Source: Erysipelotrichaceae bacterium (lineage in GTDB: Bacteria > Bacillota_I > Bacilli_A > Erysipelotrichales > Erysipelotrichaceae). From it: a DNA stretch of 64,000 nucleotides. The stretch spans positions 326,188 to 390,187 of the forward strand of contig DPJD01000001.1 of assembly GCA_003543215.1 (NCBI GenBank), read 5' to 3'. Positions 7,682 to 28,896 of this stretch are shown one piece after another. Numbering within the stretch: position 1 is the stretch's first letter; every line of letters begins with the position of its first letter. A program made the translations under genes and the position numbers. Under the pieces are notes generated by a model, which was not told where the DNA came from, did not search any database, and saw nothing but the letters and a program-made list of their open reading frames with translations.

Positions 7682-7687
7682 CTAGAC

Positions 7688-7892: not shown

Positions 7893-7913
7893 ATTTAAAA
7901 GGAGGATCGTAGA

Positions 7914-10545: not shown

Positions 10546-10569
10546 CTCGGATAAACGAGCTTTTCTTTT
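10544..10569 (+). terminator. Intrinsic terminator after lipoprotein gene
   Basis: AGCTCG-gataaa-CGAGCT followed by TTTCTTTT. Confidence 0.6.
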
Positions 10570-10610
10570 GGAATGTTATTTGGTATGATACTTCCATTCT
10601 TGGAGAAGCT

Positions 10611-11165
10611 ATGAAACCACTTAAACGTATGACCATCTCCGCACTCTTAGCAGTCTTGCTTGTAGTGTCGGCATATATATCCATTCCTCTACCCATTTCG
10701 AGTGTCGCTTTTACAGCGCAATCCTTAATGGTCATGCTTATTGGCTTAAGCATGCCTGTGAACATTGCGTTCACTTCGGTTGGTTTATATTTACTTTTAG
10801 GGGCGATTGGGTTACCGGTATTCTCCAATGGGACGGCTGGTCTAACAGTACTCTTCGGCCCAACAGGGGGCTATCTCTTTGGTTTTCTGATTGGAGTCGT
10901 GGTAATGTCGATCGTAAAGGATCATGCGAAAGGTTATGGCGGACGTATGGTGGCGGCCATCTTTGGGGGCATCATCGTTGTCTATTTCTTTGGTTACCTC
11001 GTATTGAAATTGGTTCTCGGTTTGTCCTACGGCAAAGCCTTGATGATTGGTGTCATCCCATTTCTACCCCTTGATTTCCTGAAAGCTTGGATTGCGGCTT
11101 GGTTCACGAAGAAGTATCAGAAGCATTTCAATCGAATGTTGGGACAGCCTGTAACCAAGTCTTGA
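10611..11165 (+). CDS. bioY: Biotin transporter BioY (ECF S component)
   Basis: 184 aa, about 6 TM segments, GGYLFGF and PFLPLD motifs typical of BioY. Confidence 0.85.
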   Translation: MKPLKRMTISALLAVLLVVSAYISIPLPISSVAFTAQSLMVMLIGLSMPVNIAFTSVGLYLLLGAIGLPVFSNGTAGLTVLFGPTGGYLFGFLIGVVVMSIVKDHAKGYGGRMVAAIFGGIIVVYFFGYLVLKLVLGLSYGKALMIGVIPFLPLDFLKAWIAAWFTKKYQKHFNRMLGQPVTKS

Positions 11166-11218
11166 CCATTACGTGTTGTGTATTATAATAATTATGTACA
11201 TGGCCTAATAAGGTAGGG

Positions 11219-11245
11219 AAGAACCACGAAGGTGGTTTTTTTCGT
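11219..11245 (+). terminator. Intrinsic terminator after bioY
   Basis: GAACCAC-gaag-GTGGTTT followed by a T-run. Confidence 0.65.
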
Positions 11246-11359
11246 TATACGCTAAGTTTTTTGTTAAGATTTCTATACTATTCTTGTTTATTTTTATTGT
11301 GTTGTCTAATAAACTTAAAGCATAAGAATGCTCTTATATCTTACGCACTGAGGTTCACC

Positions 11360-12835
11360 ATGGGCTTTAAACTCCTTTCCTTATATCTCTTTCTCGCAAT
11401 TCTTGCACTCTCGTATCTCTTTGTGCATTCCTTTGTACGTGGTCGATCCCAACACGCCAAGCTCTTGGGAATCTTGAGTTTGACCTTGCAAGTGTATCTC
11501 TTGGGCTATCTTGTAGAGTTGAATGCGACATCCTTGGATGCGATGATCTTTTGGAATCAGATTCAGTACTTTGGGATTCCGTTCTTTCCAGCCTTGTGGT
11601 TTGCGGTCAGTGCGGTGTATACCGGACGACCACAGTGGATCCAGGGATGGCGGGGTCTGTTGGTCATCAGTGTTCCCGTTTTGACGTTTGTCATTCGTCT
11701 GACCAATGATTTTCATCACTGGTATTATGCGTCCATGACCTTGGTGTTCTTAGGTGATTATACGGCCATGTATTTAATCAAAGGACCATGGTATCTTGTT
11801 CAAATGGCCTATGTGTTGATTACCTTGGTGGCGTGTACACGTTTCTATGCCTTGCGTTATCGTAAAGCAGAGGGGAATGAGCGGATGCAGTTCAGTTTGT
11901 TGTTGTGGGCATCGATCTTACCCTATGTGGCCTTGGTTTTGGTGTTTATAAATTTTGGTGATTTGGGTATTGATTATACGGCTTTGATTCTACCGCCGTG
12001 TATTCTCTTGATCAATCATGCGCTGACGAAGTATAACTTCTTGGAAATCAAGGAAATGGCACGGGAGCGTGTATTTGAGGATAATCGGATTGGGTATTTG
12101 TTGTTAAGTAAGCAGTTGAAGGTCGTGGATATGAATCCCTTAGGGAAGCAATTGTTGAAACAATTGGAGGCTAACAATCCTTCAATCCATGAATGGATCT
12201 TGGATGATGCGAAACATCTCATTAAACTAGAGAAACACAATAAGACAGTATCGATCTCCAGTCAAGCTATTGAAAACAGTGGGTATTTGGTATCCATCGA
12301 GGATGTCAGTGAACGTGAAGCGATTTTGAATCGCTTGGAGCATTTGGCGAACATCGATGCTTTGACGCAGTTGAATAATCGTCGTTCTTTCTTTGAACAA
12401 GCCAATCAGATCTTTGAACATGCGGATCGTTACCATGAACCGCTTGCCTGTTTGATGATCGATATCGATCACTTCAAAGATGTCAATGATCACCATGGGC
12501 ATGAAGCAGGGGATACGGTATTGAAATCCTTAGCTGAAACCATGAAACAATGTTTTCGAAGCAGTGATGTGATCGCACGCATGGGTGGTGAGGAGTTTGC
12601 GGTTCTTTTACGTATGAGTGAAATGGATGCCGCACATCTGATTGCCGAACGATTACGTGTAACAGTGGAAAAGGAAAGCATCCAGCATAATGAACTCAAT
12701 CTACACATCACCATCAGTCTAGGGCTGGCTGTACGCAATGTTCATGAAGATCTTGAATCTGTACTCAGACGTGCGGATAAAGCGTTGTATGAGGCTAAAG
12801 CAGCAGGACGTAATCAAGTCCGTCGTGCTCAATAG
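11360..12835 (+). CDS. Membrane-anchored diguanylate cyclase (7TM sensor N-terminus + GGDEF domain)
   Basis: GGEEF active site in ARMGGEEFAVLL, RxxD-like region, multi-TM N-terminus. ATG 11360 preferred over the TTG at 11261. Confidence 0.85.
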   Translation: MGFKLLSLYLFLAILALSYLFVHSFVRGRSQHAKLLGILSLTLQVYLLGYLVELNATSLDAMIFWNQIQYFGIPFFPALWFAVSAVYTGRPQWIQGWRGLLVISVPVLTFVIRLTNDFHHWYYASMTLVFLGDYTAMYLIKGPWYLVQMAYVLITLVACTRFYALRYRKAEGNERMQFSLLLWASILPYVALVLVFINFGDLGIDYTALILPPCILLINHALTKYNFLEIKEMARERVFEDNRIGYLLLSKQLKVVDMNPLGKQLLKQLEANNPSIHEWILDDAKHLIKLEKHNKTVSISSQAIENSGYLVSIEDVSEREAILNRLEHLANIDALTQLNNRRSFFEQANQIFEHADRYHEPLACLMIDIDHFKDVNDHHGHEAGDTVLKSLAETMKQCFRSSDVIARMGGEEFAVLLRMSEMDAAHLIAERLRVTVEKESIQHNELNLHITISLGLAVRNVHEDLESVLRRADKALYEAKAAGRNQVRRAQ

Positions 12836-12983
12836 GTATTTGTTAACAAGTATATGTTTCTCACAAATTATTAAAATTGTTTCAATTATCAACGGTATTA
12901 TCTTCATTTATTTGTTCATTATCGTGTGCATATGCTTCACATTTACTTACCATTTGGTTACCATTAATGTATAAGGTGGCTCA

Positions 12984-14664: not shown

Positions 14665-15258
14665 ATGAAGAAAATAGGATTATTAATCTTTGTGTTTCTA
14701 CTAACAGCGTGTGCGGTTAAGCCGGATGCGGTGTTGAGTGAATACTTCAATATGATTAAATCAAATGACAATGCGATTTATGATGCGGAGTTACATGCAA
14801 GTTACTTTGATCGTGATCCAGGGTTGAATACTGAAGATACAGAAGAATTATTAAACAATCAAACAGAAGCGGGTAAAGAACTCTCTACCGCGTATCTTGA
14901 TTTGGTACAAGAATTTGAGTACACCATCAACAGTACGACCATTACGGATGATGAGGCTGTAGTGAATGTGACGATCAAAGCGTATCCTTTGATGGATATG
15001 ACTTTGGATCTGATGAACCGTTTGATGTCAGCTTTGTTTAGCTTAACCTTTACGACGGAAGAAGAGACAACAGCGTATATGTTGGAGCAATTCAATCTCT
15101 TAAAAGTAGATTATACGAAATCGTTTGAAGGCACTGTTGATGTGTATTTGGTTAAGGTGGAGAAGGATTGGAAGATTGTGGGTGGTGATAAGAATCTACC
15201 ACTGTTCAATTCATTGACTGGGAATTTGATGAATATACAGGATGAGTTAGAGTACTAA
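14665..15258 (+). CDS. Lipoprotein of unknown function
   Basis: MKKIGLLIFVFLLTAC lipobox; GGAGGA RBS at 14654-59. The longer ORF from 14575 overlaps the upstream gene. Confidence 0.6.
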   Translation: MKKIGLLIFVFLLTACAVKPDAVLSEYFNMIKSNDNAIYDAELHASYFDRDPGLNTEDTEELLNNQTEAGKELSTAYLDLVQEFEYTINSTTITDDEAVVNVTIKAYPLMDMTLDLMNRLMSALFSLTFTTEEETTAYMLEQFNLLKVDYTKSFEGTVDVYLVKVEKDWKIVGGDKNLPLFNSLTGNLMNIQDELEY

Positions 15259-15279
15259 AGGGCAGAGGCCCTTTTTTTG
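15258..15279 (+). terminator. Intrinsic terminator (left edge of defence island)
   Basis: AAGGGC-agag-GCCCTT followed by TTTTT. Confidence 0.7.
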
Positions 15280-15519
15280 TTCAGTTGTTTGTATAGCATT
15301 GACATTTCAACTATGGTTTAGTTGGGAGGATCACTTTAATAAAAGATTTGGTGGGATATTTTCGATATTATTTTTGCTTTTTTTCATATTGCTTTTGATT
15401 ATTGCGGAATTGGTTAAGCAACAAAGGCCAAGAAGACGAAATTATTGATGAATCACTTGTAATTACAATGGTATAATGGCTTCAATGATGTCTTGTAGTG
15501 AGAGTGGGGAATAATAATA

Positions 15520-15834
15520 ATGAAAAACACAATTGAGAAGATACTTAAGTTTACGCATGATCGTGATTGGGATCAATTCCATAGCCCAGAAAATTTAGCG
15601 AAATCAATCTCTATAGAATCTGGAGAGCTATTGGAATGTTTTCAATGGAACAGTAAATTTGATCATGATAAAGTCGTCGATGAATTAGCGGACATTGTTA
15701 ACTACTGTATTTTGATGGCAGATAAATTGGATGTCGATTTAGAGACTATTGTTCTAAATAAACTTATAAAGAATGAACAGAAGTATCCGGTTGATAAGTC
15801 TAAGGGAAAGAGTGATAAGTACAACAATCTATAG
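15520..15834 (+). CDS. MazG-like all-alpha nucleotide pyrophosphohydrolase (dCTPase/DCTPP1-like)
   Basis: RDWDQFHSPENLAKSISIESGELLECFQW ... DELADIVNY gives the EExxE/D metal-binding motifs of the MazG NTP-PPase family; 104 aa. Confidence 0.8.
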   Translation: MKNTIEKILKFTHDRDWDQFHSPENLAKSISIESGELLECFQWNSKFDHDKVVDELADIVNYCILMADKLDVDLETIVLNKLIKNEQKYPVDKSKGKSDKYNNL

Positions 15835-15842
15835 GTGGGGAA

Positions 15843-17714
15843 ATGATCGTTTATTCGGATACAAAGTATAATTTTATGGAAGTTGTCTTGGATGGCCGAA
15901 TTGCAAATATTGTAGAAAAAAGCCTTCAGGATAAACTGAAAATTAGAGTTAGTCCAGCCGAGTTCAGTGCTTTTCAAAACTCGCTTGTTTTTGTGCGAAT
16001 GATGCTAAGTGAAACGAAATTGCATAATGATACGACTGTATCAATAGAATATCGTATTCCAAACACTTCAAAACGAATCGATTTTATAATCAGCGGCAAG
16101 AATGTAGAAGATAAACCTGCAGCAGTAATATTAGAACTAAAACAATGGTCACATGTTGAATCGATTTCAGGCTCAGATGGTTTGGTGCGGACATTCGTAG
16201 GTGGTAGTAAAAATGTTGTAACGCATCCTTCATATCAAGCATGGTCATATCAAAGTATGATCAGTGATTATAATGAAAATGTATATAAAATCCCGATTGA
16301 ATTATCATCATGTGTTTTTATGCATAACTATGCGCGTGAAGAAGGTAAAGGGATTTTTTCTTATGACTATGACAATTATCTTAGACAATCACCTGTATTT
16401 TCGAAAAATGATATTCGAAAATTGAGCCATTATATTGATGAAAGAATCATCGGACCAGATTACTTAAAAACAATCGAATTAATAGAACACGGTAAGATAA
16501 AACCTTCTAAATCACTGCAAGATTCACTGACTAAGATGCTAGACGGTAATCCTGAATTCATCTTGATTGATGAACAGAAAATTGTCTATGAGCAAGCAAT
16601 TGCGTTAGCTACAAAATCGATGAAAGACCGGAAGAAACGGGTAATGATCATCGAAGGTGGACCAGGTACGGGTAAATCTGTGGTTGCCATTAATCTACTT
16701 GTGCAATTCACCAAGAAATTAGAAATGCATTGCCGATATGTGACAAAGAATTCGGCACCTCGTTCGGTCTATAAGTTTTATCTCAAAAAACACGGAATGA
16801 AAGGGAAGAATATTGATTATCTTTTTACAGGTTCGGGTAGTTTTACAGATGTACCAACTGACTACTATTCATCTTTGATTGTGGATGAAGCTCACAGGTT
16901 GAATGCGAAATCTGGAATGTTTCAAAATTTAGGTGAAAACCAGATAAAAGAGATTATCAATTCAGCCCTCTTATCCGTATTCTTCATCGATCATGATCAA
17001 AAGATTCACATCAATGATATTGGTAGTGTTGATGAAATCAAGAAATGGGCAAAGTACTTAAATGCTGAAGTGTTTGAAAACAAACTTGTTTCGCAATTTA
17101 GGTGCAATGGATCTGAAGGGTACTTGAATTGGTTGGATGACGTACTTGATATAAGAGAAACTGCAAATACAGTTTTTGAATTTGATTATGAGTTCAAGAT
17201 TTTCGATAGTGTACAAGAAATGCGAAAAGCTATCGAAGAGAAGAATCAAGGTAGGAACAAGTCACGTATGTTAGCGGGATATTGTTGGGACTGGATTTCG
17301 AAAAGTAATAGTCAACTCTTCGACATAGAATTCAAGGAAGAGAATTTTAAAATGAGATGGAATCTCAACAGTGAAATTTATGCGATATCGGATTCTTCAA
17401 TTAATGAGATTGGATGCATACATACTTCTCAAGGCCTCGAGTTTGATTATGTCGGTGTCATTATTGGTGAAGACTTAACATTTAGTAATGATTGTGTTGT
17501 TACAGATTTTACAAAGAGAGCAAGCACAGATCAATCACTTAAAGGTATCATTACCTTGAACAAAAAAGATCCAGATAAAGCAGCTGAGATAGCCGATGAA
17601 ATTATAAAGAATACATATCGAACACTGATGACTCGAGGAATGAAAGGTTGTTTTGTGTACTGTGTTGATGAAACACTGAGTGAGTACTTAAAACAGCGAA
17701 TTAAATGGTCATAA
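15843..17714 (+). CDS. DUF2075 / Schlafen-type ATPase: N-terminal PD-(D/E)xK-like nuclease module + SF1 helicase-like P-loop domain
   Basis: RIDFIISG...VILELKQW (D...ExK), Walker A GGPGTGKS, Walker B IVDEAHRL, GYCWDW and HTSQGLEFDYVGVIIG signatures of DUF2075. Starts 9 nt after the MazG stop. Confidence 0.8.
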   Translation: MIVYSDTKYNFMEVVLDGRIANIVEKSLQDKLKIRVSPAEFSAFQNSLVFVRMMLSETKLHNDTTVSIEYRIPNTSKRIDFIISGKNVEDKPAAVILELKQWSHVESISGSDGLVRTFVGGSKNVVTHPSYQAWSYQSMISDYNENVYKIPIELSSCVFMHNYAREEGKGIFSYDYDNYLRQSPVFSKNDIRKLSHYIDERIIGPDYLKTIELIEHGKIKPSKSLQDSLTKMLDGNPEFILIDEQKIVYEQAIALATKSMKDRKKRVMIIEGGPGTGKSVVAINLLVQFTKKLEMHCRYVTKNSAPRSVYKFYLKKHGMKGKNIDYLFTGSGSFTDVPTDYYSSLIVDEAHRLNAKSGMFQNLGENQIKEIINSALLSVFFIDHDQKIHINDIGSVDEIKKWAKYLNAEVFENKLVSQFRCNGSEGYLNWLDDVLDIRETANTVFEFDYEFKIFDSVQEMRKAIEEKNQGRNKSRMLAGYCWDWISKSNSQLFDIEFKEENFKMRWNLNSEIYAISDSSINEIGCIHTSQGLEFDYVGVIIGEDLTFSNDCVVTDFTKRASTDQSLKGIITLNKKDPDKAAEIADEIIKNTYRTLMTRGMKGCFVYCVDETLSEYLKQRIKWS

Positions 17715-17824
17715 AGATAAGTTTAAGAAGAATTACAATAATTATTAATCTAATCTAAATTGCATGTATGGCTTAAAACACTAGACCAATTGAGAAATTA
17801 AAGAGAAAAATAAAAAGGAGTAAC

Positions 17825-19996
17825 ATGGAAAACAATAAGCAATTTGATTGGGTAGATTTCTATAATGGATTCGCAAGAAAACTACTTTTGTACAAGGACA
17901 ATCGATCTGAATTAATTAGATTAATTAAGCTGGTTTTCAGTGACATTAATATGAGTTTACCAACTCTGGAACTAAAAAATGACATCGTTGATATTGATCC
18001 ATTCACTGTTTTTGGATTATTCAATAAGAGCCAATCCATTGATAGTCGGCTTAAATTAATAAAATCTATTACAAACCATTTTGATTTATCAGCCAAAACT
18101 CCTACAAGTTTCGATAGTATCCCCGTTCTAAATAATATGAATGCAACATTCTATTGTTTCATTGATGCAAGATCTGAGCATGATATAGACAACTTATGGC
18201 ATTTTTTTGAAGCAGCCCTTGAATATTCGGATAATCAGAGCTTTGAGAATAACGTAAGATTCTCAAAGTATTTTGATATCGTAGTTAATTTAAAAGGGAA
18301 TGGTAATAGCAAAATTACAATGGGACTCTATTGGATAGCTCCACACATCTATCTTAACTTAGACAGTAGAAATGAATGGTACATTTATAAATCAGGAAAA
18401 ATTCCTCTAAGGGTGGTGAATGATTTACCACAAATTAAACCAAAAATCATGTCATCAACTTATCTTGAAATTGTAGATAAGTTAGCCAACTTTATAAAAA
18501 GTGGTAATACTCAATTTAATGATTTTAGAGATCTTTCTTTTGAAGCTTGGCGATATTCTGAAGAGGTTAATCATGCCGCTAAACAAAATACTGTTAAAAC
18601 ACAACGAGATAAAAAAGGTGAAGCATTAGCTGATGCAGATGTTGATACGATTCATTACTGGATCTATTCTCCTGGAAATGAAGCAGTCAATTGGGATGAG
18701 TATTATTCTAAAGGCATAATGGCAATTGGATGGGGCGAACTCGGAGACTTAAGCCTATTTTCAAACAAAGACGAAATGAAGATTAGAATGAAAGAGGTAA
18801 TAGATAATACCAAAGGCTACAAAAATGCAGCTCATGCGACCTGGCAATTTGCAAATGAGATGAAAATCGGTGATGTAGTTTTCGTTAAGAAAGGGATGTA
18901 CAAATTAGTTGGAAGAGGAGTAGTAAGCTCAGAATATCAGTATGATGATTCCTTTGATGAAGAGTATCGGAATATTCGAAGTGTAAATTGGACAGATAAG
19001 GGAGAGTGGGATCATCCTGGTCTAGCTGTTATGAAGACACTTACGGATATCACTGCATACACTGATTATGTCGAAAAGCTGAATGCTCTTTTCGAGGGCT
19101 CAGGATATGAAGAACTCGAAATTGAAGATATCGTCTATCCACCATACACTAAACAGAAGTTCCTTGATGAAGTATATATTGAAGAAAGCAGTTATGATAA
19201 TTTGGTTCAACTGATTAAAAAGAAGAAAAATGTTGTTTTACAGGGAGCACCAGGTGTTGGAAAGACATACGCTGCAAAGCGCTTAGCCTACTCTATGATG
19301 GGTGTAAAAGACCAAGAACGGATTATGATGGTTCAGTTTCACCAGAGTTATACCTATGAAGATTTTATAGAAGGATTCAGACCATCTGGTACAGGCATGA
19401 ATTTTGAGATAAAGAAAGGTTCCTTTTATAATTTTTGTAAAAAAGCTGCAGAAAATATTGAAGAAGACTATTACTTTATCATTGATGAAATTAATCGTGG
19501 CAATTTGAGTAAGATCTTTGGCGAGCTTTTTGTGCTTATAGAAAATGATAAACGAGGTAATGCACTTCAACTATTATATTCTGATGAGAAGTTCTTTGTT
19601 CCAGACAACGTTTATATCATTGGGATGATGAATACTGCTGACAGAAGTCTTGCAATGCTTGATTATGCACTTAGAAGACGCTTTGCATTCTTTGATATGA
19701 GTCCAAGTTTCAATTCAGAAGGATTCAAGAGATATCAGAAATCAGTAAACAACGAGAAATTTGATCGTCTTATTGAAAGAGTAATAAAGCTAAACGAAGC
19801 TATCGAAACAGATGATTCGCTTGGATTGGGATTCAAAATTGGTCATAGTTATTTCTGTGATTTAACGAATGTAGATCACCAAGTCTTATCGAATATTGTT
19901 GAATTTGAACTTATCCCTCTATTGAATGAATACTGGTATGATGAACCGCAGAAATTGAAAGATTGGAGCAGTCATTTGAGGAGTGCTATTAAGTGA
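17825..19996 (+). CDS. mcrB: McrB-family AAA+ GTPase with a roughly 450-aa N-terminal extension
   Basis: Walker A LQGAPGVGKTY, McrB signature FIIDEINRGNLSKIFGELF and MMNTADRSLAMLDYALRRRF. The middle region IMAIGWGELGDL...IGDVVFVKKG...GRGVV looks like an EVE/PUA-type fold. Confidence 0.85.
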   Translation: MENNKQFDWVDFYNGFARKLLLYKDNRSELIRLIKLVFSDINMSLPTLELKNDIVDIDPFTVFGLFNKSQSIDSRLKLIKSITNHFDLSAKTPTSFDSIPVLNNMNATFYCFIDARSEHDIDNLWHFFEAALEYSDNQSFENNVRFSKYFDIVVNLKGNGNSKITMGLYWIAPHIYLNLDSRNEWYIYKSGKIPLRVVNDLPQIKPKIMSSTYLEIVDKLANFIKSGNTQFNDFRDLSFEAWRYSEEVNHAAKQNTVKTQRDKKGEALADADVDTIHYWIYSPGNEAVNWDEYYSKGIMAIGWGELGDLSLFSNKDEMKIRMKEVIDNTKGYKNAAHATWQFANEMKIGDVVFVKKGMYKLVGRGVVSSEYQYDDSFDEEYRNIRSVNWTDKGEWDHPGLAVMKTLTDITAYTDYVEKLNALFEGSGYEELEIEDIVYPPYTKQKFLDEVYIEESSYDNLVQLIKKKKNVVLQGAPGVGKTYAAKRLAYSMMGVKDQERIMMVQFHQSYTYEDFIEGFRPSGTGMNFEIKKGSFYNFCKKAAENIEEDYYFIIDEINRGNLSKIFGELFVLIENDKRGNALQLLYSDEKFFVPDNVYIIGMMNTADRSLAMLDYALRRRFAFFDMSPSFNSEGFKRYQKSVNNEKFDRLIERVIKLNEAIETDDSLGLGFKIGHSYFCDLTNVDHQVLSNIVEFELIPLLNEYWYDEPQKLKDWSSHLRSAIK

Positions 19997-21033
19997 TTCC
20001 TGTTAAGAATATTTACTACATGTTGTCTTATGCTTTTCGCGCATTAAATAGCCAAGGGTATAAAGACATTTCTACTGAACAATTTAATAATGTGGCTGAA
20101 CTCTGTTCTAAGATTTTAACCATTGGGGTCAGTAGTCAGATAAAACAAGGTCTTGGCCGCAAGTACATCTCTGAGACCGAGGCTTTAACATCTCTAAAGG
20201 GGAGGATAAATATAACAGATTCAATCAAGAGTCAGACATTAATAAGAAGACAATTGGTTTGTACATTTGATGACTTCTCTGTAAATATACATGAGAACCA
20301 AATTATTAAAGCAACGATTGAATTATTACTAAAATCCAATATCTCAAAAGAACGTAAAATTGAATTAAGAAAGTTGTTAGTTTTTCTTAGTGATGTAGAA
20401 TCTATTGATATTCATTCAATTAATTGGAAATTACAGTATAATCGAACGAACCAAAACTATAGAATGATAGTTTCAATCTGCTACCTCATTTTGAAAGGCC
20501 TTTTACATACAAATAGTGATGGATCAACAAGATTAATGGATTTTTTGGATGAACAGCGAATGTCTAGGTTGTATGAGAAATTCATTCTTGAGTATTATAA
20601 AAAAGAGTTCCCTCAGCTTTCAGTGAGATCCTCTCAAATACAATGGATGTTAGATGATGAGAACAGTTTAATGTTGCCAGTGATGCAATCAGATATCATA
20701 TTGTCAAATAAAGATAATTATTTGATAATCGATGCCAAATATTATTCAAGTGTTACTCAATTGAGATTCGATACACAAACACTACATTCGGCGAACCTCT
20801 ATCAAATATTTACATATGTGAAAAATAAAGAGGTAGAATTACAAAGCAAACCGCATAAAGTTTCTGGTTTGTTGTTGTATGCGAAAACTGATGAAGGTAT
20901 TTCGCTAAATAATTCCTACATGATGAGCGGCAATAGAATAAGTGTCCAGACTCTGGATTTGGATTGCAGCTTTGAACAGATTACTGCGCAACTTGATGCT
21001 ATTGCATTTGATAGTTTTAGAGATCTTACCTAA
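19993..21033 (+). CDS. mcrC: McrC-family endonuclease subunit
   Basis: GTG start overlaps the mcrB TGA (GTGA). PD-(D/E)xK motif DIILSN...LIIDAKYY. 346 aa, typical of McrC. Confidence 0.8.
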   Translation: MIPVKNIYYMLSYAFRALNSQGYKDISTEQFNNVAELCSKILTIGVSSQIKQGLGRKYISETEALTSLKGRINITDSIKSQTLIRRQLVCTFDDFSVNIHENQIIKATIELLLKSNISKERKIELRKLLVFLSDVESIDIHSINWKLQYNRTNQNYRMIVSICYLILKGLLHTNSDGSTRLMDFLDEQRMSRLYEKFILEYYKKEFPQLSVRSSQIQWMLDDENSLMLPVMQSDIILSNKDNYLIIDAKYYSSVTQLRFDTQTLHSANLYQIFTYVKNKEVELQSKPHKVSGLLLYAKTDEGISLNNSYMMSGNRISVQTLDLDCSFEQITAQLDAIAFDSFRDLT

Positions 21034-21094
21034 ATTCTTTCTGCCTGATGAAGAAGAAATGTAAATCGGGATGAAATTGAGGAGGTGGCTTAAT

Positions 21095-21772
21095 ATGATG
21101 ATTAGCCCAGAAAGTTATTATGAAGAATATCTCAGTGGAAGAACTAAAGAACAGATTATGAGCGCTATTCGTGGTCTTAAGCAAGAAATTGGGCGTCTTA
21201 AAAATTCAATGGAAAACCCAAACTTTAGCCAAGTAGAAGTTATGCATCCTAGTGAATATACACGCCTTGACTTGACACGAGAGTATTTGAAAAGAGCCAA
21301 ACAAGCATATGCTGAAGCTGGAGGAACGTATGCTTTATCAAAATCAGAAAAAAGATCTGCTGATTTTAATTCAAATATAGATTTCATATGTAAGATCAAT
21401 TTCAGCATTGGTGGATTCTTTGGTGGTTACCGTAAATATACTATAGAACTAACAGATGAGTTAAAAGTTCATGCAAAAATATGGGATCTTGAAGAACCAC
21501 TATACTTGTTCGATGAAGAAGGTGAATTTATAACAAAGGAAAATTTTATTGCTTTACTGTCTACCATCCATTTAGAGGAATGGCGAAGAAATTATACGAC
21601 TCAACGTTTCGGATATGAGGTATTCGATGGTACCCAATGGGAACTGGAAGTTAAGTACAATAATGGTCGTAAACCAGTTAGGTTTTCTGGTAGTAACGCA
21701 TATCCGTATAATTTCGAGAGATTTAAAGCATTATTGGAGATTGAAGATGCAATAGATGCCGAAAATGCATAG
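21095..21772 (+). CDS. Hypothetical protein (226 aa), no recognisable motifs
   Basis: ATG 21095 preceded by GAGGAGG. Coding-like composition, same strand, 61 nt after mcrC. Confidence 0.5.
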   Translation: MMISPESYYEEYLSGRTKEQIMSAIRGLKQEIGRLKNSMENPNFSQVEVMHPSEYTRLDLTREYLKRAKQAYAEAGGTYALSKSEKRSADFNSNIDFICKINFSIGGFFGGYRKYTIELTDELKVHAKIWDLEEPLYLFDEEGEFITKENFIALLSTIHLEEWRRNYTTQRFGYEVFDGTQWELEVKYNNGRKPVRFSGSNAYPYNFERFKALLEIEDAIDAENA

Positions 21773-21964
21773 ATTTAGAAGATTTGATTTTTAATTTTCT
21801 CGATAGCACTTATTTCAATGGAGTAAACGATTGCTTTTATCCATCAGTGTATTGGTAAAATATCCACGAATTTTCTGATCAGAAATTCTACTGAAATCTG
21901 TTCATTTACATTTAGATAGCTTTTAAACTGTATGCTAATTAACCAAAACATAGAGAGGACTTTC

Positions 21965-22930
21965 ATGCCCCTAGCCATCATTCGTCAAGATATCACCACA
22001 ATGCATGTCGATGTCATCGTCAATGCCGCAAATACACAACTTAGAAAAGGTGGTGGAGTTTGTGGTGCGATCTTCAATGCGGCAGGTGCAGAGAACCTAC
22101 AAACCGCATGTGATGTCTATGCGCCAATAAAAGTTGGAGGTGCTGTTTTAACTTCTGGCTTCAAACTTCCAGCACGATATATTATTCATACAGTTGGACC
22201 TGTCTACAAAGATGGGAAATCGAATGAAGAAAAATTGCTGTCGAATGCTTACTGGAATAGTTTAGAGCTTGCGATAAAACATGAATGTACCAGCATCGCA
22301 TTTCCACTAATCTCAAGTGGTATCTATGGGTATCCTAAAGATGAAGCACTTCATGTTGCGATGTCGACAATCCGGAGCTTCCTTGAATCGCATGAACTGA
22401 TGGTCTATCTCGTCTTGTTTGACAAAGCAAGCTTCAAGATCAGTCAAGAACGTTTAGGTGATATTCAAAGCTATATTGATGAAAACTATGTAGAGACCCA
22501 TACTTTTGGTAGAGGTCGCTTCAATGAACCCGATCTTGTTCAGTATAAACAAGCATCCGTCAAAGACATCCAAGACTGGGTTAAACTGGTCGACCAATCC
22601 TTTTCCGAAACACTCTTGTATTGGATCGATGTCAAAGGGATGAAGGATGTGGAAGTCTATAAACGTGCCAACATGGATCGTAAATTATTCTCAAAGATAC
22701 GATCCAACAAAGATTATATTCCCAATAAACGAAATGTTTTGGCTTTGTGCATCGCAATGAGACTAGACATTAAAGAAACAGAAGCCTTATTAGAGTGTGC
22801 AGGTTATGCACTTTCTTCCAGTCAACTCTTTGATGTGATCATACGCTATTACATTGAAAACAAGATCTATGACATTGATGAGATCAATACGGTGTTATTC
22901 CAGTATGATCTGGCATTGTTGGGTGTTTAA
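21965..22930 (+). CDS. Macro domain (ADP-ribose/O-acetyl-ADP-ribose hydrolase, MacroD-like) fused to a roughly 150-aa C-terminal helical, possibly HTH, domain
   Basis: VDVIVNAANTQLRKGGGVCGAIFNAAG ... IIHTVGPVY ... IAFPLISSGIYGYP are canonical MacroD motifs. The C-terminal half is unrelated to macro. Confidence 0.85.
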   Translation: MPLAIIRQDITTMHVDVIVNAANTQLRKGGGVCGAIFNAAGAENLQTACDVYAPIKVGGAVLTSGFKLPARYIIHTVGPVYKDGKSNEEKLLSNAYWNSLELAIKHECTSIAFPLISSGIYGYPKDEALHVAMSTIRSFLESHELMVYLVLFDKASFKISQERLGDIQSYIDENYVETHTFGRGRFNEPDLVQYKQASVKDIQDWVKLVDQSFSETLLYWIDVKGMKDVEVYKRANMDRKLFSKIRSNKDYIPNKRNVLALCIAMRLDIKETEALLECAGYALSSSQLFDVIIRYYIENKIYDIDEINTVLFQYDLALLGV

Positions 22931-22950
22931 CACTTTATATCGTCAAATGA

Positions 22951-22975
22951 AAAGGGGTCTTGTGAGATCCCTTTT
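22951..22975. terminator. Bidirectional intrinsic terminator (right edge of island)
   Basis: AAAGGGGTCT-tgtg-AGATCCCCTTT with A-run and T-run on the two sides, between convergent genes. Confidence 0.7.
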
Positions 22976-22978
22976 ACT

Positions 22979-23974
22979 TTAGATTACGTTTTCTTCTAAA
23001 ATTAGTTCTTGCTTATCTGAATCTAATGTAGCCAATACCCCAATCGGTAATGTAAGCATCGGATGCGTATGTGCACAATCAAACTCTGCGAGAATTGGAA
23101 TTTTTGGCTCACCAATGACTTCCAATAACAACTCATAGGGTCTACGACCTGTACCCATGTCTTTGAAGAGTTCATGCTTACCTAAGATCAATCCTCCAAT
23201 ACGATCAAACACGTTATTGACCTTGAGATGTGCAAAGTTGCGTTCCAATGTTGCGATATCTTTTAAGGAATCTTCAATGAGTAGGATATCACCTTGCTTG
23301 ATTTCAGGCATGTATTCAGAACCCCAGATACCACCCATGGTATTGAGATTACCACCGATGAGACGACCGGTATGACGACCTGGATGTACGGTGATCAATT
23401 GATTTGTTTGAGGGTGTTTGCTTCTGTCTTGGAGCGACCAATCGATGTATTCCTCTGTCCACTCTTTTGGGGTAGGAAGAAGATAAGGATATTTCATTTG
23501 ACCGGATACTATCGCTTCAAAGCTTGCGAAAGTCTCGTCCACATACGGAGGCAACTCTCCGAATGATGCGACCAAGGCAGGACCATAATAGGTCACTAAA
23601 CCTGTTTTCGCATAGATCCCTAAGAGGAGTGCCGTCACATCTGAATACCCTACAAAGATCTTCGGATCTTTTTTGATGGCTTCATAATCCAAATAGGGAA
23701 GCAATGAATTCGAGTTCATTCCTCCGATCATCGACATGATGCATCGTACTTCAGGATCACGAATCAATGCATTCAACTCATCCACACGCTCTTGAATGGA
23801 ACCAGAGCGATAGAAATCACGGTGTCCCGTTAGGGAGCCTTCCTTGATGATATAACCCTTGTCTGATAAATAAGCCTTTGCTCGCTCAAAACGTATTTTG
23901 GCAAAAGCGCTAGCGGGTGAAGAAGGGGAGTAAACAGCGATGATATCGCCTTTACGTAAAGGTTTTGCGAACAT
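22979..23974 (-). CDS. LD-carboxypeptidase, S66 family (MccF-like)
   Basis: GDIIAVYSPSSP N-terminus and GYSDVTALL Ser-nucleophile motif; 331 aa. Confidence 0.85.
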   Translation of the reverse strand: MFAKPLRKGDIIAVYSPSSPASAFAKIRFERAKAYLSDKGYIIKEGSLTGHRDFYRSGSIQERVDELNALIRDPEVRCIMSMIGGMNSNSLLPYLDYEAIKKDPKIFVGYSDVTALLLGIYAKTGLVTYYGPALVASFGELPPYVDETFASFEAIVSGQMKYPYLLPTPKEWTEEYIDWSLQDRSKHPQTNQLITVHPGRHTGRLIGGNLNTMGGIWGSEYMPEIKQGDILLIEDSLKDIATLERNFAHLKVNNVFDRIGGLILGKHELFKDMGTGRRPYELLLEVIGEPKIPILAEFDCAHTHPMLTLPIGVLATLDSDKQELILEENVI

Positions 23975-24094
23975 AGAAGTCTCCTGATCTATCTTCCATT
24001 ATACAAGAAAAGCGACTTTATTAAATGTCGCTTCACAAGCGACCTCTCAATTGTTCCCAGCGCTTAAACTAAGGGCATAAAGGAGCAATACATT

Positions 24095-24739
24095 ATGAAA
24101 AACAACGCAACAGAATTGGTCTACATCTTAGATCGCAGTGGATCCATGGCAGGTTTGGAAAAAGATACGATTGGTGGTTTTAACGCCATGCTTAAGAAAC
24201 AAAAAGAAGTCGAAGGCGAATGCCGTATCACCACCGTCCTCTTTGACAATCAAATGAACATCCTCCATGATCGTTTAGACATCCAAGCCATTGGAAGTTT
24301 AACTGAAAAAGATTACCATGTCGGAGGTTCTACCGCACTCTTGGATGCGATCGGTTCTACCATAAACAAAATCGGCAATGTCCAAAAGCACAGCGCTTAT
24401 GACCACCGTGCCTCCAAAGTCCTCTTTGTCATCATCACCGATGGTGAAGAGAACTCCAGTCGTGAATTCTCATCTGGACGTGTCAAGAAGATGATTGAGC
24501 ATCAGATGAACAAGTATGGCTGGGAATTCATCTTCCTTGGCGCAAACATCGATGCGGTAGAAACCTCAAAGATGTATGGTATACGGCCTGATCGTACCCA
24601 GAACTATCATGCGGACGCAAAGGGAGTCAACTTGAACTTCGATGTCATGAGCAAGACCGTCGCAAACTTCCGTATGAATGCCAGTATTGATAAGGATTGG
24701 AAGGATCAGATCGAGAAGGATTTTGAAGAACGTAAGTAA
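24095..24739 (+). CDS. Stand-alone cytoplasmic von Willebrand factor A (vWA) domain protein
   Basis: MIDAS residues DRSGSM, GGST, ITDGEEN; no signal peptide. Confidence 0.8.
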   Translation: MKNNATELVYILDRSGSMAGLEKDTIGGFNAMLKKQKEVEGECRITTVLFDNQMNILHDRLDIQAIGSLTEKDYHVGGSTALLDAIGSTINKIGNVQKHSAYDHRASKVLFVIITDGEENSSREFSSGRVKKMIEHQMNKYGWEFIFLGANIDAVETSKMYGIRPDRTQNYHADAKGVNLNFDVMSKTVANFRMNASIDKDWKDQIEKDFEERK

Positions 24740-24743
24740 GAGG

Positions 24744-24776
24744 GTGTGTCCGATAAAACGGACACACATCTTTTAT
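24744..24776 (+). terminator. Intrinsic terminator after vWA gene
   Basis: GTGTGTCC-gataaaac-GGACACAC followed by ATCTTTTAT. Confidence 0.65.
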
Positions 24777-25110: not shown

Positions 25111-25389
25111 TTGATATCGTATGTGATATTATGGAGGTGTAAGATTAGTTCTAAAGAGAAAAGAATAAAGCGATTACTTTCAGAACCTTATCGAAAAGAC
25201 ATTCGTTTTGATGAATTAGTTCTGGTGATGCATGATTTTGGCTATCGTTTGGATCGTATTAGAGGTAGCCATGCTTATTTCATTCATTCAAAGTACCCAA
25301 ATATCTGTGTACCTAAACATGAACCCATTAAAGTTGCCTATATTAAGTCAATTATTCAAGTGCTGAAAGCACAGGAGGAAACACGATGA
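25111..25389 (+). CDS. hicA: HicA family type II toxin (mRNA interferase); start codon uncertain (TTG 25111, GTG 25123, or ATT 25144 six nt after GGAGG)
   Basis: ...FDELVLVMHDFGYRLDRIRGSHAYFIH... matches the HicA/YcfA dsRBD-like fold with its GSH motif. Confidence 0.7.
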   Translation: MISYVILWRCKISSKEKRIKRLLSEPYRKDIRFDELVLVMHDFGYRLDRIRGSHAYFIHSKYPNICVPKHEPIKVAYIKSIIQVLKAQEETR

Positions 25390-25724
25390 ATTATCCAATG
25401 CGCTTATACACTGTTGAAACCGTAGAAGGACCAGAATGGATTGCTGAGTTTGTGGATATCTTTGGTTGTGTTGGTGGAGGGAATACTGCAAAAGGAGCTT
25501 TGGAAGATGCCTTGATTAACTTGGAGTATTATTTGGGGTTTGTAAAAGAAAGGGGTGAGGATATTCCTCAGCCCTCTGATTATAATGAATGCAACGGTAA
25601 GATTGCTTTACGTTTACCAAAATCGATGCATCGTCGTTTATTGAAATTATCAGAAGATGAAGGGAAAAGTTTAAATCAATTGATTCTCGATTCATTTGAA
25701 AGAAAGATGGGTGGGAATGAATGA
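25386..25724 (+). CDS. hicB: HicB family antitoxin, copy 1 (N-terminal HicB fold + C-terminal RHH)
   Basis: ATGA overlap with hicA. EGPEWIAEFVDIFGCVGGGNT...EAL HicB core. KIALRLPKSMHRRL RHH strand. Confidence 0.8.
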   Translation: MNYPMRLYTVETVEGPEWIAEFVDIFGCVGGGNTAKGALEDALINLEYYLGFVKERGEDIPQPSDYNECNGKIALRLPKSMHRRLLKLSEDEGKSLNQLILDSFERKMGGNE

Positions 25725-26055
25725 ATTATCCAATGCGCTTATACACTGTTGAATCCGTAGAAGGACCAGAATGGATTGCAGAATTTGTAGATATTTTCGG
25801 TTGTGTTGGTGGAGGGAATACTGCACAAGAGGCTTTAGAAGATGCCTTGATTAACTTAGAGTATTATTTAGAGTTCGCAAAAGAAAGGGGTGAGGATATT
25901 CCTCAACCCTCAGATTATAATGAATGCAATGGAAAGATTGCTTTACGGTTACCAAAGTCGATGCATCGTCGTTTGGTGATGAAAGCGGATGAGGAAGGTG
26001 TAAGTTTAAATCAACTCTTGGTTTCTTATCTTGCGGAAATGTTGGGAGCAAAAGG
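25386..26055 (+). repeat. Tandem direct duplication (2 x 335 bp) covering the two hicB genes
   Basis: Both units start ATGAATTATCCAATGCGCTTATACACTGTTGAA. DNA is near-identical for about 265 nt and then diverges. Confidence 0.85.
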
Positions 26056-26065
26056 TAAAATTTAA
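25721..26065 (+). CDS. hicB: HicB family antitoxin, copy 2 (tandem paralogue)
   Basis: 80/85 identical to copy 1 over the N-terminal 85 aa, divergent after HRRL; ATGA overlap with copy 1. Confidence 0.8.
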   Translation: MNYPMRLYTVESVEGPEWIAEFVDIFGCVGGGNTAQEALEDALINLEYYLEFAKERGEDIPQPSDYNECNGKIALRLPKSMHRRLVMKADEEGVSLNQLLVSYLAEMLGAKGKI

Positions 26066-26162
26066 TTGATTGTTGTAATAGACTAATGATTGCCACAATA
26101 TTTGAATAATTCTGGTCTAGATGATCAGATTTTTTCGTTGTAGACTATAGGCGAAGGTTAAA

Positions 26163-28118
26163 ATGATCAAAATTACAAAACGTCAGAAGGATATACTACA
26201 TTTTCTGTTGGAAAACGATGTTTTCATAACGGTCAAAAACCTATCAGAACGATTTGATGTAAGTTCAAGAACACTTAGATATGATTTAGATTTAATTGAG
26301 TATTACTTAAAAGAACAAGACATAAGTCTTGAACGAAAACCGCATTATGGGGTTCGTATTCAGTTCAATGAAAGTGAATATAAATCAATCATCGGAATTT
26401 TGAATCGAAATGATGATTATCAGCTTCCACAAGAAGAACGAAGAAGACTCGTATTGTTCTATTTACTTTGTGAATCACTACTCACTATTGAACATCTCGC
26501 AGAATTATTAGAAGTAAGTAAACAAACCATTCAAACTGATTTAGAGGAACTTGATAAAGAGTTAGATCAAACAAGTCTCAAAATAGTTCGAAAAGTCCGA
26601 CTTGGCTGTTATGTAGAAGGAGATGAAATTGATATAAGACGATATTTTTCCAACTTGTACACACGGATGAGTGAATCAGAACGTTCTGTTATTGATAAAT
26701 ATGTCAAAGACAAATGTATCAAAATTACAGAGAAAGCTAGTCGTATCGTACGAAATATGGAAAACTTCCAAAAGTTTAACTTTGCACATCCTGATGAACT
26801 CCGGAGTATTATTGCTTTCAATCTATATCGAAGCAGTAACGGTATGGTTTTACCTAACAATTACACGCATCAATTTGAAGCAGGACGTCTTTCATTAGTT
26901 GAAAAGCTTACAAACAACTTTGAGATGAATATCAATGAGAATGATGCGATGTTCATTCTTGAGCACATGTTGGATGCAAAAGTTGATTCAACACCTCAAA
27001 CTTGGATTGAACAAGATGAAGATGGAATCATTGCAAATGAACTCGCAGACTTTTTATTGAATGGATTAAATGAAGTCCCAAAACTTAGTGATGAAGAAAG
27101 TACCAGTTTCATTGAGAACTTACAGCTTCATCTCAAAATAACCCTCTTTAGAATTCGAAATAAGTTGAATGTTGAGAATCAAATTCTCGATCGTGTCAAA
27201 GTTAGTATTCCTTTGATTTATGAGTATACAAAGTCTCGACTGATTGAATACGAAGCCAAAAAAGGACTATATTTCAACGAAGAAGAAATTGCTTATATTG
27301 CCATGCATGTTGGTGCAATCGTTGAGAAAAGAGCTTTGTATGCGCCAGGTTTAAATGTGTTGGTTGCATGTCACTTTGGCATTGCTACATCTAAAATCAT
27401 GGTTTCACGATTAGCAGCCATGATTCCTGAAATCAACATCATTGGACCGGTAACGCTTGATGAAGTTCCAAAGTATATTACAGGTCAAACCATTGATTTG
27501 ATTATTACGACTCTTAAGTTTGACTCTAGTATCGATACTGTCCAAGTTAGTCCACTTTTATCGGATGAAGATGTGTATCGAATCAAGTCGAAAGTATATA
27601 AGAGCACCTATCTTAAACAGTGTAATAACTTTATCAAGAATTTCAACTATGGGAGTACTGAAAGTTACAAACTATCTGATTGTTTAGTGGATAAATATAT
27701 CCAAATCTATGATGAGCTACCTGATTGGAGAACTGCAATTCGATTAGCGGCGCGACCACTTGTGGATGATCGATTGATCGAAAAACGTTATGTCGATCGG
27801 ATGATCAGAGCTGTGGAAGAATTTGGAAATTACATGGTGATTCTCCCAGAAACAGCATTTGTTCATGCAGGCATTGATGATGGTGTAAACGAACCTTGTG
27901 TAAGTTTACTCGTCCTGAAGACACCGACTGTATTTGGAAATCAGAACCAAGAGTTGATCCGAAATATCGTTGTAATCGCAGTAAAGAAAAGGGAGGATGA
28001 TATCATCTTGAAACTGGCAAAGATTTTAGAGAATCCAGATAATCGTAAACAATTGAATCAAGATCATATTACAGTCAACCAGATTTTAGAGCTAAAACAC
28101 GAGGTTAAATTATGTTAG
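26163..28118 (+). CDS. PRD-domain transcriptional activator of the MtlR/LicR class (HTH-PRD-PRD-EIIB-like-EIIA-like)
   Basis: N-terminal KRQKDILHFLL...VKNLSERFDVSSRTLRYDL HTH, 651 aa, C-terminal EIIA(Mtl/Fru)-like region. Overlaps the downstream EIIA gene by 7 nt. Confidence 0.8.
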   Translation: MIKITKRQKDILHFLLENDVFITVKNLSERFDVSSRTLRYDLDLIEYYLKEQDISLERKPHYGVRIQFNESEYKSIIGILNRNDDYQLPQEERRRLVLFYLLCESLLTIEHLAELLEVSKQTIQTDLEELDKELDQTSLKIVRKVRLGCYVEGDEIDIRRYFSNLYTRMSESERSVIDKYVKDKCIKITEKASRIVRNMENFQKFNFAHPDELRSIIAFNLYRSSNGMVLPNNYTHQFEAGRLSLVEKLTNNFEMNINENDAMFILEHMLDAKVDSTPQTWIEQDEDGIIANELADFLLNGLNEVPKLSDEESTSFIENLQLHLKITLFRIRNKLNVENQILDRVKVSIPLIYEYTKSRLIEYEAKKGLYFNEEEIAYIAMHVGAIVEKRALYAPGLNVLVACHFGIATSKIMVSRLAAMIPEINIIGPVTLDEVPKYITGQTIDLIITTLKFDSSIDTVQVSPLLSDEDVYRIKSKVYKSTYLKQCNNFIKNFNYGSTESYKLSDCLVDKYIQIYDELPDWRTAIRLAARPLVDDRLIEKRYVDRMIRAVEEFGNYMVILPETAFVHAGIDDGVNEPCVSLLVLKTPTVFGNQNQELIRNIVVIAVKKREDDIILKLAKILENPDNRKQLNQDHITVNQILELKHEVKLC

Positions 28119-28588
28119 AAATCGTAAGAATCGAGAACATCTTAGTAAATCAAGAACCCAATAACTGGGAAGAATCCATCTCAATTGTCGGTCAACTACT
28201 CGAAAATGCAGGTAGTATCAATGCAAAATATACAGAGGCAATGATCGAAGCAGTCAAGCAACTTGGCCCGTACATCGTTATTGGTAAACACATTGCTATT
28301 GCACATGCTGCGCCTGAAGTACATGTTCATAAAAACGACATGTCAGTAGCAATCTTATCAAAACCAGTTGCTTTCGGGTCGCAAAACGATCCTGTTAAAG
28401 TGTTGTTTGCTTTAGCTAGTGTCGATGGAAAGTCACATCTTGAGAAGTTGATGGAATTGGCACGAATCATCGGTGAAGATGATGAAGTTGTAGATCTCTT
28501 AAGTAAATGTACGACGAAAGAAGAAGTATATGAAATTATCAATGGTGTAAACAATGGTCGCGTTCCATTGTCACATAGAAAGGGGTAA
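28112..28588 (+). CDS. PTS EIIA component, ascorbate/mannitol (UlaC/SgaA) family
   Basis: GKHIAIAHAAPE phosphorylatable-His motif; about 158 aa. Confidence 0.85.
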   Translation: MLEIVRIENILVNQEPNNWEESISIVGQLLENAGSINAKYTEAMIEAVKQLGPYIVIGKHIAIAHAAPEVHVHKNDMSVAILSKPVAFGSQNDPVKVLFALASVDGKSHLEKLMELARIIGEDDEVVDLLSKCTTKEEVYEIINGVNNGRVPLSHRKG

Positions 28589-28589
28589 T

Positions 28590-28886: not shown

Positions 28887-28896
28887 AAGGGAAAAA

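Follow-up and report, generated by a model that had tools for sequence, protein, structure and literature searches.

dCTP pyrophosphatase 1 (DCTPP1, also called RS21-C6) prefers dCTP and 5-modified dCTPs. Nhi of Staphylococcus epidermidis (SERP2475) is an anti-phage nuclease-helicase that acts on phage replication intermediates and for which Dda, Upf1 and Dna2 have been reported as structural neighbours (Bari et al., 10.1101/776245). A single-gene 'Nhi-like' protein of the same architecture has been tested and was defensive (Millman et al., 10.1101/2022.05.11.491447). A predicted relative of the first enzyme (MazG-like) and a protein of Nhi-like architecture (DUF2075) are encoded side by side in a 64,000-nt stretch of DNA from an Erysipelotrichaceae bacterium (assembly GCA_003543215.1, contig DPJD01000001.1, positions 326,188-390,187 of the forward strand), hereafter called the window. 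The two genes are followed by mcrB, mcrC, an orphan gene for a 225-aa protein and a gene for a macro-domain protein. An earlier interpretation, made from the letters of this DNA (the sequence-only reading), had described the run as a nucleic-acid conflict island at a chromosomal defence hot spot. Here we report that the slot between a conserved lipoprotein gene and the macro gene is a genuine defence hot spot, and that the MazG-like and DUF2075 genes form an independent two-gene module, which is widespread and apparently undescribed.

A variable slot between conserved flanks

The defence genes at the slot differ among relatives that share its flanks, in agreement with the proposed hot spot. 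On the left side, ThrRS (97-98% aa identity), a 299-aa protein (88%), BioY (83%), a GGDEF protein (71%), an Flg_new surface protein (43%) and a lipoprotein (40%) are syntenic with the window in two relatives (L136 and L138), and the synteny ends after the lipoprotein gene. The genes found 3' of this point are BrxA-BrxB-BrxC in L138, and DUF4230 and DUF4352 genes, then a set with an SNF2-type helicase, DUF4391 and an N6 methylase, in L136. On the right side, blastn homology to three Erysipelotrichaceae metagenome-assembled genomes (L004, L024 and L005) extends over the macro, LD-carboxypeptidase and VWA-like genes (21959-24738) and stops at 21959. The LD-carboxypeptidase, encoded 3' of the macro gene, shares 94% aa identity with its relative in L004 and 80% with those in L005 and L024. 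The region 5' of the macro gene in L004 encodes a NERD/HRDC protein, an FRG protein (PDC-S15) and an HNH type-IV-like protein, and the slot of this genome also holds a GIY-YIG/DUF4357 protein (PDC-S14, E = 1e-106), an unknown protein and a type III restriction endonuclease (PADLOC E = 2e-292). By sequence similarity, a type III Res homologue and an adjacent open reading frame (ORF) of ~310 aa are common to L024 and L004. An exact-protein look-up of the LD-carboxypeptidase returned just contigs of the same gene organisation, and was thus uninformative on polymorphism.

Both flanks were found on one contig in L140, which has ~89-94% DNA identity to the window. Its gene order is Flg_new, lipoprotein, MazG-like, DUF2075 (94% aa identity), GmrSD (848 aa), NERD/HRDC, macro and LD-carboxypeptidase. 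The blastn breakpoints relative to the window are at 17665 and 21949. Between them, GmrSD and NERD/HRDC genes stand in place of mcrB, mcrC and the 225-aa gene, while the MazG-like/DUF2075 pair is retained. The exchange of cargo is therefore sub-modular, with the right half alone swapped between the window and L140.

The slot also stands out by its base composition. The GC content of 15280-21931 is 0.338, compared to 0.408 in the rest of the window, and no 6.65-kb stretch of the window is lower in GC than 15301-21952, which is ~2.6 standard deviations (sd) under the mean (all 6.65-kb stretches: mean 0.398, sd 0.023; next-lowest non-overlapping stretch 0.369). GC at third codon positions (GC3) of the five genes in 15520-21772 averages 0.31 vs 0.43 ± 0.07 in 52 other ORFs (Mann-Whitney p = 6e-4). 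Deviant composition, as expected of a hot spot, is thus present in both GC and GC3. The sequence-only reading had judged the block to be more AT-rich than its flanks, which these data bear out. Of the two hand counts of G+C on which it drew, that at the pfkA start (32/60) was reproduced exactly, whereas the mcrB start has 18/60 and not 19/60. It had further proposed that alignment with relatives and GC analysis be made, and would have been refuted by uniform composition together with a block that is core in all relatives; neither was observed. The right border had to be moved: the island was drawn to 22975, but it ends at ~21948, as the macro gene is of intermediate composition (GC 0.40, GC3 0.39) and conserved in relatives.

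The MazG-like and DUF2075 genes form a widespread pair

The family labels proposed earlier hold for the whole block, namely MazG-like (PF12643), DUF2075 (PF09848), McrB, McrC, one protein without a family, and Macro (PF01661). The MazG-like protein matches PF12643 with 71 bits (cut-off 27, E = 7.5e-20), and its metal-binding motifs E33xxE36 and E55xxD58 fit the EXXE(12-28)EXXD pattern. Among PDB sequences, its best solved relatives are DCTPP1 proteins (E = 8e-17 over 95 residues), to which it is ~40% identical. It is predicted from these matches to be an all-alpha nucleoside triphosphate (NTP) pyrophosphatase, closest to DCTPP1.

The DUF2075 protein is a RecB-like PD-(D/E)xK nuclease joined to a superfamily 1B (SF1B) helicase, an architecture like that of Nhi. 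It matches PF09848 (DUF2075/SLFN-g3 helicase) with E = 4e-99. An alignment of 30 sequences revealed an N-terminal domain with the RecB/Cas4/Dna2-type PD-(D/E)xK set (invariant D80, E98-L-K100 and Q132xxxY136), and a helicase core with invariant Walker A (G272-K278) and DEAH (348-351) motifs. In the AlphaFold2 (AF2) model (pLDDT 84.6, pTM 0.84), D80 opens a strand, E98/K100 close the next strand, and helix 129-147 follows, which is the canonical beta-beta-beta-alpha nuclease core. Foldseek matched the model to the SF1B helicases DSH9, RecD2 and Dda, and also to SLFN11, Dna2, Upf1 and nsp13. Relaxed Pfam and PDB sequence searches with the N-terminus were empty. PADLOC gave weak and partial matches to PDC-S41 (1.8e-15, C-terminal part) and AbiO (4e-10), and a weak match to its Nhi model (E = 1.7e-9) over residues 243-423 only.

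The distribution of the pair was surveyed by a metagenome scan, which yielded 80 full-length DUF2075 homologues with 44-77% identity. A MazG-like gene is present in 69 of these 80 loci. It is located directly upstream on the same strand in ~56 (gaps of -4 to 75 bp), upstream with a 0.25-2.6-kb insert in 9, and directly downstream of the DUF2075 gene in 4. All 80 loci lack McrB, McrC and the 225-aa gene, and L140 keeps the pair but swaps McrBC, so the pair is independent of McrBC. The sequence-only reading had considered the block as a possible unit; this does not agree with a pair that occurs without McrBC in all 80 other loci, nor with the swap of McrBC and the 225-aa gene in L140, and the block is a mosaic, not one system. 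The DUF2075 family comprises at least 8000 clusters at E <= 1e-10. The pair was also observed on a plasmid of the haloarchaeon Halalkalicoccus jeotgali, with a 'nucleotide pyrophosphohydrolase' gene 5 bp upstream, and in a record named Microcystis phage Mwe-JY31, in which the protein encoded upstream shares 46% identity with the MazG-like protein. Viral occurrence was limited to four phage records and a single partial match among the 2.9 million viral contigs of IMG/VR. The possibility that the pair is a phage gene set was rejected, as it is mostly cellular and near-absent from IMG/VR. A literature search of incomplete coverage found no description of a MazG-like (PF12643) and DUF2075 (PF09848) pair.

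Defence-type matches among 148 immediate neighbours of the pair were HNH (seven), HEC-01A, mad3, PDC-S07, AriA and REase_II (three each) and Old (two). A gene with PUA-like and HNH domains is located directly beside the DUF2075 gene in four loci (L052, L074, L088 and L095), and a fifth homologue was found in L106 by tblastn. This arrangement echoes the observation by Lutz et al. (PMC6765204) that DUF2075 NTPases adjoin modification-dependent nucleases. A Hymenobacter canadensis plasmid (L126, 6001-9987) carries tandem DUF2075 paralogues, 47% and 30% identical to the window protein, which come straight after a restriction-modification (RM) set and a DUF4747 gene.

McrBC with an unusual, putative reader region

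The McrB motor has the motifs GAPGVGKT (at 474), DEINR (at 554) and NTADRS (at 603) and matches AAA_5 (PF07728, E = 1.6e-21). The match to NF008457 (E = 2.4e-86, 290 bits vs a cut-off of 637) aligns residues 441-718, i.e. the motor only. In front of it is an N-terminal extension of ~440 aa with precomputed DUF8425/DUF8426 assignments, including a segment of ~110 aa that matches PADLOC PDC-S02. Residues 1-440 gave no Pfam or PDB match in relaxed searches and no alignment to the E. coli-type model; the N-terminal modified-cytosine reader of the E. coli type was accordingly not found, and we infer that a different modified-DNA reader domain is present in this part of McrB. A single sub-threshold RAGATH-19 match inside mcrB was the only result of an Rfam search (E <= 1), and an RNA element at this place was dismissed.

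McrC exceeds the equivalog cut-off of NF007277 (412 bits vs 338), matches PF10117 and has the PD-(D/E)xK motif IIDAKYY at residue 247; its gene overlaps mcrB by 4 bp. Judged by these profiles, the McrBC of the window appears to be an ordinary type IV restriction enzyme with an unusual, putative reader region.

The orphan gene and the macro gene

More than 904 homologues of the 225-aa protein, with lengths of 224-227 aa and 62-73% identity, occur in Firmicutes and Bacteroidota, and no sequence in the family alignment is more divergent than the window copy. No family was assigned in Pfam, NCBIfam, PADLOC or PDB-profile searches; the C-terminal half matches phrog_24571, a family without an assigned function. 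The AF2 model (pLDDT 79) had no fold match in the PDB, with Foldseek matches no better than E = 7.6e-3 and TM < 0.4. DNA similarity between the window and other copies of the gene is limited to 21080-21723.

The genomic context of the homologues connects the family with mobile elements. In Peptostreptococcus russellii, Dehalobacter and Tindallia, a gene for a 74-aa XRE-type helix-turn-helix (HTH) protein (HTH74) lies 16 bp upstream of the homologue, and large serine recombinases adjoin the homologue in two of the three. The order recombinase, recombinase, HTH74, 226-aa gene was found in 10 of 13 IMG/VR contigs. The cargo after the HTH74 and 226-aa genes varies by genome and consists of McrB(DUF8426)-McrC-GmrSD in P. 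russellii. The window contains no HTH74 homologue. We interpret its 225-aa gene as an orphan, either the remnant of a serine-recombinase element or a gene captured from one. A highly conserved cassette of 2-3 tandem large serine recombinases, HTH74 and the 226-aa protein was seen in prophage-like contigs of several families (L128-L135, L142-L154), and variable cargo followed it in the cellular genomes examined (L128-L135).

The macro protein matches PF01661 (E = 6e-40), with YmdB and MacroD1 as best PDB matches. The macro motifs NAAN, GGG and GxYG are present, and a Cys replaces the catalytic Asp after GGGV. The protein also has a conserved C-terminal domain of 150 aa, whose sole match is phrog_4031, a family without an assigned function. 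The sequence-only reading had described a macro-HTH protein, of which the macro domain was recovered. The HTH was not: the C-terminal part had no Pfam or PDB match to an HTH, and in an hhalign comparison to an XRE HTH family the probability was 0.3%, an uninformative value from shallow alignments. The macro gene is kept in relatives, with aa identities of 92% in L004 and 69% in L024; L140 has it too, and there it begins 12 bp after the NERD gene. It is the last gene of the co-directional run. Since it is conserved beside quite different cargo and is of intermediate GC, it is the conserved right flank and not cargo. No evidence was found that links the macro protein to defence.

Gene layout and borders

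The features of the locus are listed in Table 1. Seven genes had been counted in the block, but the ORF listing contains six within 15520-22930; the sole candidate for a seventh is an unsupported ORF of 49 aa with a TTG start (15299-15448). This putative ORF lies in the 261-bp leader ahead of the MazG-like gene and has a strongly hydrophobic core. All six ORFs are on the + strand, as had been noted. Co-orientation is, however, not distinctive here: nearly all genes in 392-22930 are on this strand, and the cumulative GC skew climbs steadily across the region, as expected of a leading strand.

Table 1. Coordinates of the features in and around the variable slot (positions in the window)
Feature	Position	Strand	Length	Remarks
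Intrinsic-terminator-like hairpin with T-run	15257-15274 (T-run to 15279)	+		Ends lipoprotein gene; left edge of variable region
Extended -10-like motif, TGGTATAAT	15469-15477	+		43 bp 5' of first gene; putative promoter
MazG-like gene	15520-15834	+	104 aa	Gap to next ORF 8 bp
DUF2075 / Schlafen-group-3-type gene	15843-17714	+	623 aa	Gap to next 110 bp
Swap segment (mcrB, mcrC, orphan 225-aa gene)	17666-21948	+		From blastn breakpoints vs L140
mcrB	17825-19996	+	723 aa	Overlaps next by 4 bp
mcrC	19993-21033	+	346 aa	Gap to next 61 bp
Orphan gene	21095-21772	+	225 aa	Gene-caller start, MMISPE...; gap to next 192 bp
Macro gene	21965-22930	+	321 aa	From ATG 21965
Terminator-like hairpin	22950-22975	.	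11 pairs	Between convergent macro and LD-carboxypeptidase genes

The two bounding terminators described earlier correspond to the top two terminator-like sites in 14.5-24.2 kb. This region has 10 such sites vs 4.0 ± 1.9 in shuffles, and no strong terminator was found in it between 15280 and 22950. The extended -10 motif TGGTATAAT is present where it had been reported. No good -35 hexamer was found at 16-18 bp from it, and the site is absent from the list of a two-hexamer promoter scan.

No tRNA was found at the block borders. Flanking repeats were just of chance size (<=27 nt at 70-86% identity), and no att-like sites were detected. Pfam and NCBIfam profile searches found no integrase, transposase or recombinase domain in the block, as the sequence-only reading had stated. 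Its further conclusion, a hot spot and not a mobile element, stands in so far as the block has no recombinase of its own; it has to be qualified by the trace of an element, i.e. the 225-aa gene from a serine-recombinase cassette family.

Interpretation and rival explanations

We consider it probable that 15280-21948 is hot-spot cargo, filled piecewise by horizontally acquired low-GC genes in three independent parts: the MazG-like/DUF2075 pair, McrBC and the orphan gene. Several observations weigh against this interpretation or the defence role of the pair. There are no flanking repeats or att-like sites to explain the cargo exchange, no relative with an empty slot was recovered, and L140 alone has both flanks on one contig. 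Eleven of the 80 DUF2075 loci are without a MazG-like gene, and ordinary or housekeeping genes (MFS, Wzy, EamA) are common next to the pair elsewhere. The Nhi, AbiO and PDC-S41 models of PADLOC fit the DUF2075 protein weakly and over parts only, and the substrate of the MazG-like protein is guessed from its identity to DCTPP1. What the data show are the gene identities, the composition, the modularity, the polymorphism of the hot spot and the conservation of the pair; the biochemical steps and the anti-phage role of the pair are deduced, the latter from architecture and neighbourhood.

It could be argued that the six genes are one co-functional nucleic-acid conflict system expressed from the promoter at 15469. 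The shared strand, the short gaps (8, 110, -4, 61 and 192 bp), the lack of a strong terminator in 15280-22950, and the coherent theme of a dCTP pyrophosphatase homologue, a nuclease-helicase and a modified-DNA enzyme would fit such a system. However, the other 80 pair loci are all devoid of McrB, McrC and the 225-aa gene, L140 replaces these genes and retains the pair, the macro gene is conserved beside quite different cargo, and co-orientation is the rule across 22 kb. A single system is already largely refuted by this distribution, and we regard it as extremely improbable. The block, or at least 17666-21948, might instead be a decayed integrative element, such as a large-serine-recombinase prophage or an integrative and conjugative element, with the defence genes as cargo. 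The recombinase-recombinase-HTH74-226-aa cassettes in which the 225-aa family resides (10 of 13 viral contigs, with 3 cellular genomes in addition), the P. russellii cassette that is directly followed by McrB-McrC-GmrSD, and the low GC are in favour of this. Yet the window has neither a recombinase, the HTH partner nor flanking repeats, the gene order differs in that its 225-aa gene is downstream of mcrC, and the McrBC proteins of the window and P. russellii are distant, with 24-41% identity over partial alignments. A decayed element is thus somewhat unlikely, although it is compatible with the hot-spot interpretation and does not exclude it.

A further explanation concerns the pair, which could be a housekeeping nucleotide-pool or DNA-repair pair, with McrBC as the only defensive part. 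Enzymes of the DCTPP1 type have house-cleaning roles, repair is a function of Dna2- and RecD2-like nuclease-helicases, and the pair has many ordinary neighbours, among which other nucleotide hydrolases (NUDIX, HIT) recur. Nevertheless, its occurrence is patchy, with horizontal spread over bacteria, archaea and plasmids at 45-55% identity; it resides in low-GC accessory DNA here and beside OLD, GmrSD, PUA-HNH and RM genes in several loci, and for Nhi and Nhi-like proteins, which have the same architecture, a defensive effect has been shown by experiment. A housekeeping role accordingly seems improbable to us.

Returning to a piecewise-filled hot spot, the parts would act as follows. By analogy with Nhi, the nuclease-helicase would load on and degrade phage DNA or replication intermediates. 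The MazG-like pyrophosphatase, because of its ~40% identity to DCTPP1, may hydrolyse dCTP or phage-made modified dCTP, by which phage DNA synthesis would be starved during the attack on the DNA. From established knowledge of McrBC, McrB would bind modified DNA, here via its novel N-terminal region, translocate with GTP and recruit McrC to cut. The 225-aa gene would be a leftover of a serine-recombinase mobile element. We also speculate that the pair could be an undescribed, widely spread two-component anti-phage system of bacteria and archaea, in which the pyrophosphatase destroys dCTP or modified dCTP (e.g. 5-hydroxymethyl-dCTP) and the Nhi-like enzyme degrades replication intermediates. Its repeated placement beside modification-dependent nucleases (McrBC in the window, GmrSD in L140, PUA-HNH in 5 of 80 loci) would then mean that phages with modified cytosine are attacked in a combined way. 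Taken as a whole, this proposal is unlikely.

Neighbouring variable regions

Several other variable sites were observed in the window and its relatives. The LD-carboxypeptidase/macro junction (window 22931-22978; L004 11158-11607; L024 4221-5228) is a second, mini hot spot: L004 has a PemK/MazF-like toxin there, both L024 and L005 have AbiD/Abi_2, and the window has the terminator alone. For the LD-carboxypeptidase itself (22979-23974), the next-best matches after the Erysipelotrichaceae relatives are from Aeromonas (64-69% aa identity), ahead of most Firmicutes, which hints at a possible cross-phylum transfer. At the junction 24739-24744 (L004 7659-9034), L004, L024 and L005 carry an extra pair of genes for 98-aa and ~350-aa proteins (toxin-like and HTH/ImmA-like, respectively), which the window does not have. 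Further downstream in the window (25111-26065), a HicA toxin gene is followed by two HicB antitoxin genes (112 and 114 aa) that lie in tandem and are nearly identical. The ~90%-identical L004 does not have the AT-rich phosphotransferase system (PTS) operon of the window (26059-31184; Mga/PRD regulator, EIIA, EIIC-GAT and SIS protein), and a homologue of this operon adjoins another MazG-like/DUF2075 island in L141.

Upstream of the slot, the 7TM-GGDEF diguanylate cyclase gene (11141-12909) is absent from L140, which has ~0.7 kb of other sequence instead. L136-L139 contain an insert of ~3.5 kb between the 299-aa gene and BioY (window 10545-10611), which is absent from the window and encodes a 197-aa ORF, a PRiA4_ORF3/DUF6933 protein, a 175-aa ORF and a Gp49/HTH_37 toxin-antitoxin pair. 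An AT-rich patch at 5000-8000 (GC ~0.36) contains an ImmA/IrrE M78 peptidase gene (6381-7124) and a gene for a 187-aa unknown protein; in L140 an HTH gene is located just upstream of the M78 gene.

Comparison with known systems

Considered as a defence island, the locus is unremarkable. Its use lies in being a well-delimited hot spot of an uncultured Erysipelotrichaceae lineage with a sub-modular exchange, in which McrBC and GmrSD have been swapped and the adjacent module kept. The more useful product of the analysis is the conserved coupling, across thousands of genomes, of a dCTP-pyrophosphatase-like protein to an Nhi-like, Schlafen-type nuclease-helicase. Should the pair prove to be defensive, nucleic-acid degradation and the sanitising or depletion of nucleotide pools would be joined in one operon, and DUF2075/Schlafen helicase-domain proteins could be studied in a tractable bacterial model. 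The orphan gene, in turn, points to a highly conserved, uncharacterised component of large-serine-recombinase elements.

Like other defence islands and integration hot spots, the slot has conserved flanks, low GC and variable cargo (BREX, type III RM, GmrSD, NERD and PDC candidates); it differs from them in having no integrase, tRNA or repeats at its borders, and in the sub-modular exchange. McrBC resembles EcoKMcrBC of E. coli K-12 in the GxxGxGKT, DExNR and NTADRS motifs of McrB, in the position of McrC next to it with a 4-bp overlap, and in the lack of a methyltransferase partner, whereas the N-terminal ~440 aa of the window McrB are unrelated to the DNA-binding domain of the E. coli protein. 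The MazG-like protein has DCTPP1 as its best solved relative and conserves the EXXE...EXXD motifs. Unlike DCTPP1, it is a minimal version of 104 aa and is encoded in an operon with a nuclease-helicase. Its proposed role, the removal of a deoxynucleotide needed by the phage, would be shared with nucleotide-depletion defences (dCTP deaminase, dGTPase), although it belongs to a different enzyme family and is coupled to a nuclease-helicase. The DUF2075 protein shares with Nhi and Nhi-like proteins an N-terminal PD-(D/E)xK nuclease of ~230 aa and a DUF2075 SF1B helicase in one polypeptide, as well as the same structural neighbours. The described systems are single-gene, whereas in the clade of the window protein 69 of 80 loci couple the DUF2075 gene with a MazG-like one.

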